36,177 nucleotides of DNA from IMG/VR virus record IMGVR_UViG_3300017766_000457, positions 1 to 36,177 of that record; one strand, written 5' to 3'. The notes below the pieces were generated by a model. That model ran no database searches. It was given only the letters and a program-made list of their open reading frames with translations, and was not told where the DNA came from. Numbering within the stretch: the first letter of the stretch is position 1; the number at the start of each line of letters is the position of its first letter. Of this stretch, positions 10,775-17,381 are shown piece by piece. The translations under genes and the position numbers were made by a program. The DNA comes from a virus (taxonomy: Duplodnaviria > Caudoviricetes).

Positions 10775-10880
10775 AAAAAAAGCCCTAGGTGAGACTCTCA
10801 CTATTTCTAGTGTTGACGGACTGGTGAGTGACCAGCAGAGTCCCATCTAAGGCTTACTCGTTTAACGCGCCGTCAAGCAC
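10775..10880 (-). ncRNA. Structured leader RNA/attenuator (c4/CI-like architecture), copy B
   Basis: 19-bp stalk 10780-10798/10837-10855; hairpins 10799-10812 (GAAA loop) and 10821-10835; junction 10813-10819 complementary to 10870-10876; U7 tail. Confidence 0.72.
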
Positions 10881-12075: not shown

Positions 12076-12690
12076 ATGTCTGTTTATATCAAGCTGCAAA
12101 AAGCTAGGATGATGTTACAAGCAGCACCACTAAAGAAGTCAGGCCACAATAAGTTTGCCGGGTATCAATACTTTGAGTTAGGCGATTTTTTACCAACCAT
12201 TAACTCTATATTCTATGAAGTCGGACTCTGCTCAGTTATCAGCTTTGATAAAGAATTGGCTACTTTACGCATTGTCGATACTGATACTGGTGGGGCTATT
12301 ACATTTACTAGCCCGATGGCTGATGCCAATCTAAAGGGCTGTCATCCGATCCAGAACCTCGGTGCTGTAGAGACGTACTCACGTAGATACCTTTACGTTA
12401 CTGCTCTGGAGATCGTAGAGCATGATGCGCTAGACGCTACAACAGGCAGTGAATCGCCTAAGTCAGCCAAGCCAATTACTAAAGACGTATTTGACAGCAT
12501 GACCAGCGAGGAACAGGAAGCTATCCGCAGCATTGGTGTCAATGTGATTTCATTGCTATCAATGGATGATGTTGCTGGTGCTGTTGAGTATATTGAACAA
12601 TCAGAGTTAGACGCAGATTCTAAAACCGCCCTTTGGAGTCTGTTGGATAGTAAGCAACGGGCAGCAATTAAAAAATACACTACAAGGTAA
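12076..12690 (+). CDS. erf: ERF-family single-strand annealing protein
   Basis: KKSGHNKFAGYQYFELGD and QNLGAVETYSRRYLYVTALEI..D.LD signature. Confidence 0.9.
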   Translation: MSVYIKLQKARMMLQAAPLKKSGHNKFAGYQYFELGDFLPTINSIFYEVGLCSVISFDKELATLRIVDTDTGGAITFTSPMADANLKGCHPIQNLGAVETYSRRYLYVTALEIVEHDALDATTGSESPKSAKPITKDVFDSMTSEEQEAIRSIGVNVISLLSMDDVAGAVEYIEQSELDADSKTALWSLLDSKQRAAIKKYTTR

Positions 12691-12692
12691 AT

Positions 12693-12941
12693 ATGAGCAA
12701 TTTCGATAATACTAATCGCGGCATTCTGTCTAAGAATCTGAACAAGACAGCAGACAATCACCCAGAATACTCTGGCTCACTTAACGTAGACGGTACTGAT
12801 TACTGGTTGTCTGCATGGATTAAAGAATCTAGCAAAGACGGTAAAAAGTTCTTTAGTCTGTCAGTTAAGCCTAAAGATGCAGCAAAGCCTAAAGCTAAAC
12901 CAATGCCGGAAGAAGATTTTAACGATTCTGTTCCGTTCTGA
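12693..12941 (+). CDS. Small SSB-like protein
   Basis: Beta-rich core, Pro/Lys linker, acidic tail ending DFNDSVPF; adjacent to erf. Confidence 0.7.
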   Translation: MSNFDNTNRGILSKNLNKTADNHPEYSGSLNVDGTDYWLSAWIKESSKDGKKFFSLSVKPKDAAKPKAKPMPEEDFNDSVPF

Positions 12942-12946
12942 TCTAC

Positions 12947-13166
12947 GGAGAGAAAGCAAGCGGAGAGCTTTGGTCAGTTCATCTTAGCTTGTGAGTATCT
13001 CCACCTTTACGGCCTAAAAGCGGATGCTGTGAAATGGGTAGCTGGAATCTAATCACTGCCAGCCACAGACGTAGCGAGTAAGGCCACCTTTATGGGGAAA
13101 GCGGATGCTGGTAACACGGGGCTATCGAAATTCAGTTAGCCATACCTCCAGTGTAGCGAGTACCCA
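12947..13166 (+). ncRNA. Three tandem structured RNA units (12947-13002, 13011-13085, 13093-13166)
   Basis: Covarying closing stems GGAGA/TCTCC, GGCCT/AGGCC, TGGG/CCCA; constant RAAAGC...GYGAGTA; each ends in CCACCT. Confidence 0.75.
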
Positions 13167-13173
13167 CCTAATA

Positions 13174-13204
13174 CGCCAAGCCGGTAGTGGCGAGTAACAC
13201 CGGC
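13174..13204 (+). ncRNA. H-type pseudoknot
   Basis: CGCCA 13174-78 pairs with TGGCG 13188-92; GCCGGT 13180-85 pairs with ACCGGC 13199-204. Confidence 0.6.
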
Positions 13205-13238
13205 AGCAGGGGCTAGCCACTTTCTCTAGTGACCCTGC

Positions 13239-13368
13239 ACCAAGACGCATGAGGATTGGAGCCCGAGTCCGCAAGACTTAGTAGGCTTGCCAAAAGATAG
13301 CCAGCAGTCCTAGGAAACTCTGGATGAGACAAGCTAGATAGCCAGTCCTCAGTCGTGTTGGTCAACCA
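13239..13368 (+). ncRNA. Multibranch structured RNA
   Basis: ACCAAgACGcaTGAGGATTGG pairs with CCAGTCCTCAgtCGTgTTGGT; inner GCAA- and GAAA-capped hairpins. Confidence 0.6.
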
Positions 13369-13380
13369 TAGGAGAAATAC

Positions 13381-13572
13381 GTGATTCTTGATGAACTGCA
13401 AAAACGCTTTGACATTAAAAACGACCGCCAGCTATCCATTAAGCTAGGTGTAGCTGCCCCAGTAATTAGCCGACTGCGTAACGGTAAGGCTAAAGTCTCA
13501 GCAGAGATGATGATTGCTATCCATGAAGTATTCGGACTGCCTATTGCTGAGATTAAGGAACTGTCTAAATGA
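13381..13572 (+). CDS. XRE/Cro-like HTH regulator
   Basis: NDRQLSIKLGVAAPVISRLRNG; AGGAG RBS. Confidence 0.85.
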   Translation: MILDELQKRFDIKNDRQLSIKLGVAAPVISRLRNGKAKVSAEMMIAIHEVFGLPIAEIKELSK

Positions 13573-13880
13573 GCTGGAATGGCACAGAATTAGAAGTAAT
13601 TCGATGGGCTGAAGCTAGAGGAATCATCGCTAACTCAGACTCTAAAACACAGATGCTCAAAGCAGTCTCAGAGATGGGGGAGTTAGCAGATGCCATTATT
13701 AAACGGGATAGACCTGCTATTGTTGATGGCATTGGTGATGTGCTTGTTTGTCTTATTGTGGTGGGGGCTTTAGAAGACGTAAATCTTACCCACTGCCTAC
13801 AATCAGCCTATAACGAGATTAAAGACCGTAAGGGCTACCTCAATAAGAATGGAGTCTTCGTAAAAGATGGATCAAATTAA
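13569..13880 (+). CDS. MazG-like NTP pyrophosphohydrolase
   Basis: WAEARG...KAVSEMGELADA...DGIGD...AYNEIKDRKG. Confidence 0.88.
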   Translation: MSWNGTELEVIRWAEARGIIANSDSKTQMLKAVSEMGELADAIIKRDRPAIVDGIGDVLVCLIVVGALEDVNLTHCLQSAYNEIKDRKGYLNKNGVFVKDGSN

Positions 13881-16312: not shown

Positions 16313-16824
16313 TTGCCAAAAGCCCGACCGCCAAAGTGAAACGCTATGATAGAAGCAAACAGAGCCTGAGTCTCATCATCCCAGAGCTGATCCGCCATCT
16401 CTTTAAACGATACGCCAGCCTCAAAGCCCTTATAAGCCAGAACCGCATCCAAAGCACACAGCAGGAAGAAGAAGCCATAAGTAATCACAGGACGTACCGA
16501 AGCCCGTAGATTCTTCATCCATTGGCTAGTGCCTTCATTAAGGCTTATATCGTGAGCATAAATAGCCTGTAATTCAGCCTGTTGAGCGCCAATTAGCGCC
16601 ACTTTCTCATCAGACGCAGACTGTACCTTTATCTCGTCTAGCTTGACTTCCTCGATACGCTGTTGAGCTGCATAACCTTCTTTAGCCAGAGCTAACTCAC
16701 GCTCAATCTGGACTTTAGCCAGTTCTAGTTCGTGTTTCTTATCTGACTTATCCTGAAAGAAGTCGAGTATCTTTGGCAAGCCGCCAATTAAAAACGATGT
16801 AAAAGTAGATAACAGAGTAAGCAT
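16309..16824 (-). CDS. Holin-like membrane protein
   Basis: N-terminal TM, coiled coil, RASVRPVITY TM, IIAFHFGGR end; immediately upstream of the endolysin. Confidence 0.65.
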   Translation of the reverse strand: MLTLLSTFTSFLIGGLPKILDFFQDKSDKKHELELAKVQIERELALAKEGYAAQQRIEEVKLDEIKVQSASDEKVALIGAQQAELQAIYAHDISLNEGTSQWMKNLRASVRPVITYGFFFLLCALDAVLAYKGFEAGVSFKEMADQLWDDETQALFASIIAFHFGGRAFGK

Positions 16825-17381
16825 CAATCCCCCAAAGTAAACATCCAAACAATACCAATTATTATCAGTATAGAAACTATGCCACCAAGTGCTATAGCAA
16901 ACATATCTTGTATAAATTGAACCTTCTTAGCCTTCTCTCGTCTAGCAGCCATCTCCAAAGCCTTGAGATGCAGCCTATGGTCTACTTCTCTCTGCCTACG
17001 ATCTGCCCTAAGTTTCTCTAGCCGACCCATGAACTCGTCGTATAGACCGGGCTCCTGAAACTGGTAGATAAACATCTCTTTAAGGTCTTTATAGAACTGC
17101 TTTAGCTGCCTCTCAGCGACCATCATCTCAATGACTATCTCGTAGTCACTGCGGCTATCTTCTTGGCCTTCTGGTGGGTTCTCTTGGAGTTCTTTAGCAT
17201 GTGCTATGCCTTCTTCTGCCTTACCAGCAGACGAAAAAAAACTGGTAAGCGCTCCTAATGATTCATGAGCAGACTTACCAGCCTCAGCGCATTCTCTGAT
17301 CTCGTCAAACGCTTCTTTAGCGACATCAAAAGCAGCCTTAGCCCCTTTGATGACCATCAGGGCTGTAGCGACTTCTATCAT
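16824..17381 (-). CDS. Coiled-coil protein with C-terminal TM helix
   Basis: Helical body; MFAIALGGIVSILIIIGIVWMF. Confidence 0.72.
   Translation of the reverse strand: MIEVATALMVIKGAKAAFDVAKEAFDEIRECAEAGKSAHESLGALTSFFSSAGKAEEGIAHAKELQENPPEGQEDSRSDYEIVIEMMVAERQLKQFYKDLKEMFIYQFQEPGLYDEFMGRLEKLRADRRQREVDHRLHLKALEMAARREKAKKVQFIQDMFAIALGGIVSILIIIGIVWMFTLGD

Follow-up and report, generated by a model that had tools for sequence, protein, structure and literature searches.

Three tandem hairpins in the window (the whole stretch analyzed, a whole virus record of 36,177 bases whose genes include those for terminase, portal, capsid, tail, and lysis) are members of a widely distributed, uncatalogued family of phage RNAs. 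Each unit has the form stem-RAAAGC…GYGAGUA-stem-ACC, and the insert enclosed by this constant scaffold is exchangeable. It is quite probable that the scaffold is a chassis released from a longer transcript; for the inserts, we tentatively favor, at a little under an even chance, the reading in which they act as folded decoys or ligands for host factors on a host-matured RNA.

The hairpin array and its operon

The array lies on the plus strand of an early operon that comprises erf, ssb, a 440-nt non-coding gap, a helix-turn-helix (HTH) gene, and a MazG-like gene:

12076..12690, + strand: gene for an Erf single-stranded DNA-annealing protein, early recombination operon (PF04404, E=1e-12; phrog_155)
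12693..12941, + strand: small SSB gene (phrog_7364, E=1.6e-16), stop codon 5 nt ahead of unit 1
12947..13005, + strand: unit 1, continuous-helix subtype; stem 12947-51/12998-13002, GAAA 12952-55, GAGTA 12993-97, ACC 13003-05
13011..13088, + strand: unit 2; stem 13011-15/13081-85, GCGGATGC/GTAGC neck, folded insert, ACC 13086-88
13094..13168, + strand: unit 3; 3-bp stem plus a possible U-A pair, neck as in unit 2, ACC 13166-68
13174..13204, + strand: predicted H-type pseudoknot module, often behind units (near 53 of 348); 24 variants with compensatory changes
13206..13242, + strand: second hairpin carrier, predicted from 21 variants and its fold; ends in ACCA, variable loop
13240..13361, + strand: third carrier, predicted from 31 variants and its fold (z -2.8); a long constant clamp round an 82-nt insert
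13381-13572, + strand: HTH gene of the same operon (PF01381)
13569-13880, + strand: MazG-like gene of the same operon (PF03819)

The three units, their sequences, and both ACCTTTA linkers (13003-13009 and 13086-13092) are present as originally predicted. Each unit alone folds into the described hairpin (z -3.6, -2.1, and -1.5 for units 1, 2, and 3) under an energy model that gives no score to the non-canonical loop, and the entire 256-nt region is no stabler than shuffled sequences (z 0.03). The apical regions were described as unrelated to one another, and the three inserts were indeed assigned to different sequence families. The family of the unit-1 insert comprises 31 viral stretches. That of unit 2 comprises 21, on several different closing stems; this insert is predicted to form a small pseudoknot, and its helices are kept, with one compensatory pair. 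The unit-3 insert, whose large internal loop is two-sided, was found in one other contig only, where the array is identical. Two features go beyond the original prediction: a conserved ACC closes each unit (ends 13005, 13088, and 13168), and three further RNA modules follow the array, up to 13361. Two other readings of unit 2, as a copied MazG start or a short open reading frame, were discarded: covariation was absent, and relatives carry frameshifts.

The clamp of the third carrier is unrelated to the unit scaffold and holds unrelated inserts elsewhere. A GAAAGC…GAGTA unit lies inside this clamp in one or two variants; thus, the modules nest. In relatives (loci L170-L221), the loop of the second carrier holds CCUCCUU and CUCCAA, an anti-Shine-Dalgarno-like pair, and the copy in the window is shorter; a search for conserved own-gene targets of this carrier found none. 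The window contains no tRNA genes, and a promoter scan gave four sites where 6.7 were expected, that is, no evidence of a promoter. Elsewhere in the window (around 10775-10860, minus strand), the leader of a DUF1376 replication gene forms a very stable branched hairpin (z -4.2), and similar sequence occurs in two relatives (G025 and G026).

Spread, structure, and ends of the scaffold

Sequence databases were searched with a 21-base two-part pattern taken from units 2 and 3, with the flanks left unspecified. Five of 64 parts of a viral collection yielded 119 stretches (about 1,700 estimated overall), far beyond chance, and 6 of 64 parts of a metagenome collection yielded 120 (about 1,300 estimated). 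Among bacterial genomes, the pattern matched 50 times, with all four closing pairs in 17 copies. Twelve of these 17 are labelled Betaproteobacteria (Cupriavidus, Polaromonas, Comamonas, Limnohabitans, Fluviibacter, and others, Burkholderiales genomes included) and one is from a gammaproteobacterium; the four in other metagenome bins may be misassigned, and many of the other 33 matches look like chance. No Rfam family was matched at cut-off by the window or 33 related loci, and 14 loci whose inserts are long or unusual gave a single weak match, to nuoG, outside the insert. The scaffold is undescribed in the full-text literature searched, and its strings do not occur in four supplements of PMC10690425; the alignment supplements of PMC10690425 and PMC5737381 may bear the motif.

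The closing stem together with the constant loop is a real structure. Among 304 unique units collected by sequence pattern alone, closing pairs 1 to 4 are paired in 98, 97, 97, and 92% of units, compared to 48, 59, 74, and 63% after shuffling, whereas pairs 6 to 8 are at background level; these counts are inflated by shared ancestry, yet several pair types occur at each position. The inner stem also covaries. As a check that the invariance of the scaffold is not forced by the pattern, each half was used alone as the query. The search with the 3' half recovered RAAAG upstream in 107 of 112 unique matches (exact RAAAGCGGATGC in 84), and that with the 5' half recovered GYAGCGAGTA downstream in 104 of 114 matches, so that RAAA/GAGUA is near-invariant with either query. 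We take this loop, by its consensus, to be a loop E motif. In the loop E, or sarcin-ricin bulged-G, motif, GAA and AGUA strands are opposed between helices.

The RNase P-type ends of the units were overlooked in the original prediction. In 216 of 301 pattern-only units, RCC comes straight after the stem; the opposite strand has 6 of 301, and the background rate is 0.026 per position. In these 216 units, the +1 base is G in 199 and the base at -1 is a pyrimidine in 180, and the trailer after RCC is U/A-rich. The strict stem+RCC rule is failed by the other 85 units; within the array, the stem of unit 3 has only 3 bp, which counts against release by RNase P. At the level of sequence, the features of a hairpin-type RNase P substrate, namely a paired 5' G, a pyrimidine at -1, and a 3' RCC, are thus present. 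RNase P RNA pairs with RCC, and its non-tRNA substrates include pre-4.5S, C4, and M3 RNAs, according to PMC11143913. The SRP RNAs of the hosts have a stem+ACC end in three of four genomes. In 6 of 328 loci, tRNA genes occur at most 300 nt from a unit; there are seven in total, and each is on the strand of the unit. From the stem+RCC ends, the SRP likeness, and the same-strand tRNA genes, we infer with good reason that the units would be released by host RNase P. RNA-library contigs cover the operon of one relative plus its late genes and therefore give no sign of expression or processing of the units. In Bordetella phage vB_BaM-IFTN6 (OM293955.1), a unit has the inner scaffold without the RCC end, and an unannotated tRNA-Arg(UCU) gene was found about 100 nt behind it (locus L592, 3164-3240).

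The units occupy a preferred position behind genes for single-stranded DNA-binding proteins. In 44 of 79 insert families, the unit starts 7-18 nt after a same-strand stop codon, and a Shine-Dalgarno sequence with a start codon follows within 120 nt in 178 of 288 cases. Among 40 upstream proteins, hand-picked from the close ones, 16 match SSB or gp2.5-like families, in four PHROG groups. In seven more upstream genes (L309, L315, L310, L301, L031, L008, and L023), the place of ssb is taken by phrog_27714, a family annotated without a function whose members have an acidic C-terminal tail and which is probably an SSB family; phrog_862 and phrog_2300 may be SSB families as well. Of 13 scanned loci with copies in bacterial genomes, 7 have a RecT, RecE, Erf, Sak, Sak4, or Gam gene beside the unit. 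The placement behind ssb-type genes would make use of an abundant early transcript.

Inserts and the search for partners and targets

Single-linkage clustering sorts the 310 unique inserts into 134 families and average-linkage clustering into 142; 30 of the 31 families with at least three members sit on two or more closing stems. Insert length ranges from 8 to 102 nt, the shortest being an empty form in which the scaffold is capped by a GNRA tetraloop alone (L596, L714, L717, and L808), a natural negative control. Close relatives carry one to four units at the same site in varying combinations; when contigs were compared, unit 3 was absent in some, and a 159-nt block was exchanged for 74 other bases. 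Arrays are the minority form: of 36 genomes examined, units were detected in 34, and 27 of these have a single one.

Insert families are conserved across host genera. An 18-nt open loop is common to Cupriavidus, Paraburkholderia, and one viral contig; long conserved open loops of this kind, present in some inserts, suit antisense pairing equally. The unpaired segments of inserts are short and A-rich (538 of 1,354 nt are A) and enriched for GAAA (17 versus 6.0) and GAAAU, with no clear enrichment of anti-Shine-Dalgarno or anti-AUG words; folded ligands fit this composition better than seeds. CCATA is enriched in unpaired segments (4 versus 0.4), but CCAT is not over whole inserts (35 versus 40.6). 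One insert (L651, minus strand, and L756) takes the form of a degenerate tRNA-Gln(UUG) body, its anticodon loop enlarged, mounted at the place of the acceptor stem: 19 of 20 bases match the T-arm of host tRNA-Gln, and ARAGORN calls it under relaxed settings. This insert is not called by Rfam, and its fold is no better than that of shuffled sequences. Of 406 inserts, just one has a tRNA T-arm; ARAGORN under relaxed settings made a second call, at L771, and the overall similarity of inserts to host stable RNAs is at control level. Two groups of inserts, among families 1/3 and 7/14, carry mutually complementary sequences, GUUCAUCC in one group and GGAYGAAC in the other, which might reflect RNA-versus-RNA interference between phages.

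In a check for co-occurring genes at BLAST sensitivity, at most 13 genomes shared a protein family in a set of 19, and at most 23 in a set of 36, which suits a host partner. The most widely shared family (23 of 36) is a membrane-type protein encoded beside the endolysin gene; its member in the window (16824-17381, minus strand), unannotated and 185 aa long, has a hydrophobic stretch at the C terminus and is likely a lysis accessory. A protein cluster spanning 28 genomes proved to be an artefact of tail-fibre chaining.

The search for targets of the apical segments likewise yielded none above controls in the phages' own genomes or in host stable RNAs. Both complementarity and sense matching are at control level for host rRNA, for 32 host tRNAs, and for host SRP, RNase P, tmRNA, and 6S RNAs. 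A candidate lead is a 10-12-nt complement to one stretch of tmRNA, present in two insert families; the hot spot, of four to five families, did not exceed shuffles (maxima 4 to 8). The flanks within 300 nt of 288 inserts contain no local target. Complementarity over whole own genomes is at control level, with a mean rank of 0.41 (neutral, 0.5), as it is over own start regions, where a similar shift appears in the sense and complement controls and no insert among the 42 came out at the best attainable p. No conserved own-gene target was found for units 1 and 2. The 18-nt loop has no convincing match above control in two hosts that carry it. The unit-1 insert has scattered one-mismatch matches in at least 186 of 301 Burkholderiaceae genomes, with no common site among the matches listed, and a 20-nt sense match in one genome (G009) was judged to be chance. 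Two-armed, bipartite pockets are limited to 8 of 142 families and give no signal. Host mRNAs were probed with these two patterns only, the 18-nt loop and the unit-1 insert, which therefore leaves room for short split seeds of 6-7 nt.

Proposed mechanism, alternatives, and relation to known RNAs

In the mechanism that we favor, a unit is likely transcribed together with the early ssb/recombination operon. RNase P would cut ahead of the +1 G and free a small tRNA-ended RNA, the U/A-rich trailer would be trimmed as in tRNA 3' maturation, and tandem units would be separated like a polycistronic tRNA transcript. The loop-E neck would maintain stacking between the insert and the short, acceptor-like stem, while phage recombinases could swap inserts through the short homology offered by the constant halves. 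The least certain step is the last one, in which the insert would act in trans, each kind of insert binding its own host protein, such as an anti-phage nuclease or an RNA-binding regulator; different inserts may also work in different ways. This decoy step rests largely on the failed antisense tests, which are blind to 6-7-nt split seeds on host mRNAs.

The same chassis and release are compatible with a rather less likely, yet still credible, function of the inserts as short-seed antisense RNAs resembling C4, in which one or two 6-8-nt stretches would act on mRNAs of the host or a competitor phage or on the phage's own ribosome-binding sites. C4 itself, as described in PMC5320573, sets a precedent with RNase P release and two target loops. 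Within the window, the 3' strand of unit 3 can pair with the Shine-Dalgarno sequence and AUG of a tail-fibre gene (13 pairs, top rank), the window genome has the most GAGGTA start regions among 36 (five), and the CCUCCUU in the neighboring hairpin loop of relatives is like the 3' end of host 16S rRNA. However, unit 3 does no better than its own shuffles (p=0.67), and the control-level results for start regions, own genomes, flanks, units 1 and 2, the 18-nt loop, and tmRNA all speak against this function. The position between a stop codon and a downstream start, together with the existence of the empty form, would also suit a cis-acting hairpin that splits the ssb mRNA from the downstream message as a processing or stability site, the insert being tolerated filler. 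This we consider doubtful: arrays of up to four units, the other carriers, and the cross-genus insert families argue against it, and the 3' RCC would be superfluous for a single cut.

The original prediction combined a constant scaffold carrying exchangeable cargo with a guide function resembling a repeat-spacer array. The scaffold, the exchange, the covarying stems, and the loop-E-type loop all stand, but the guide array does not. A protein bound to the scaffold and programmed by the insert would account for the constant handle, the variable part, the occasional arrays, and the steady linkage to SSB and annealing genes. Nevertheless, most genomes have a single unit, no phage protein is shared at BLAST sensitivity, the upstream SSBs span four PHROG groups, and the inserts, folded, family-conserved, and free in length, have neither spacer-like matches nor targets above controls, nor a signal from two-armed pockets, which makes such a system very improbable. 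Still more remote is mimicry of the sarcin-ricin loop by the scaffold itself, as a decoy for elongation factors or, as proposed originally, for ribotoxins. The near-invariant bulged-G-type loop and the empty GNRA-capped scaffold would agree with such mimicry. In the ribosomal sarcin-ricin loop, the GNRA tetraloop lies on the UA/GA side of the bulged-G motif. Relative to this ribosomal geometry, the motif of the units is reversed with respect to the apical loop, the closing stem and ACC lying on its GNRA-facing side, and the conserved inserts would be left unexplained.

A decoy role broader than sarcin-ricin mimicry is tentatively the best reading. More speculative, and rather unlikely as a whole, is the extension that betaproteobacterial phages deliver a large, exchangeable library of aptamers and decoys against host defense and regulatory proteins, on a host-matured tRNA-ended chassis and swapped by recombination between the constant arms; if true, this library would be the RNA counterpart of anti-CRISPR and other anti-defense proteins. 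If units are released as predicted, lake and soil phages of Betaproteobacteria would carry a large, unrecognized repertoire of small RNAs in one common frame. This single frame and the natural empty control would make it testable what each insert binds, and the copies in cultured Cupriavidus and Comamonas strains offer laboratory systems. A natural host-matured scaffold for RNA display could also find use as a tool.

Several known systems share parts of this design. CRISPR repeat-spacer arrays and TIGR box C/D guide arrays combine a constant handle with a variable middle, sometimes in tandem. In contrast to these, the units are mostly single-copy, with no cognate protein found, folded inserts of free length, and no protospacer-like matches. 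Unlike in the sarcin-ricin loop, the motif forms a neck beside an acceptor-like stem rather than lying beneath a GNRA tetraloop. The 3' half of Rfam Proteo-phage-1 (RF03044) is resembled by the pseudoknot at 13174-13204, well below cut-off (E=1.9; 16.7 bits versus 42), and is not matched by units 1-3. The CI RNA of P4 is a C4-like phage antisense RNA. The Rfam C4 models are matched neither in the window nor in 33 related loci, the three units of the window fold as single hairpins rather than as three-stem RNAs, and loop targets in the phage's own transcript are at control level in a test that does not reach 6-7-nt split seeds. The units follow C4, CI, and M3 RNAs in predicted maturation but depart from C4 in fold, Rfam match, and target. 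C4 of P1/P7, as presented in PMC5320573, is a small phage RNA in an early transcript with a +1 G, predicted RNase P release, and a conserved frame with variable parts; it is about 77 nt long and has three stems and two short target loops, whereas each unit is one irregular hairpin with a loop-E neck that carries whole folded domains of 8-102 nt. Pre-4.5S (SRP) RNA and phage M3 RNA, as depicted in PMC11143913, share with the units a long irregular hairpin with a short closing stem followed by ACC; unlike these RNAs, the units have no Rfam SRP match, occur in tandem, and have an exchangeable interior.
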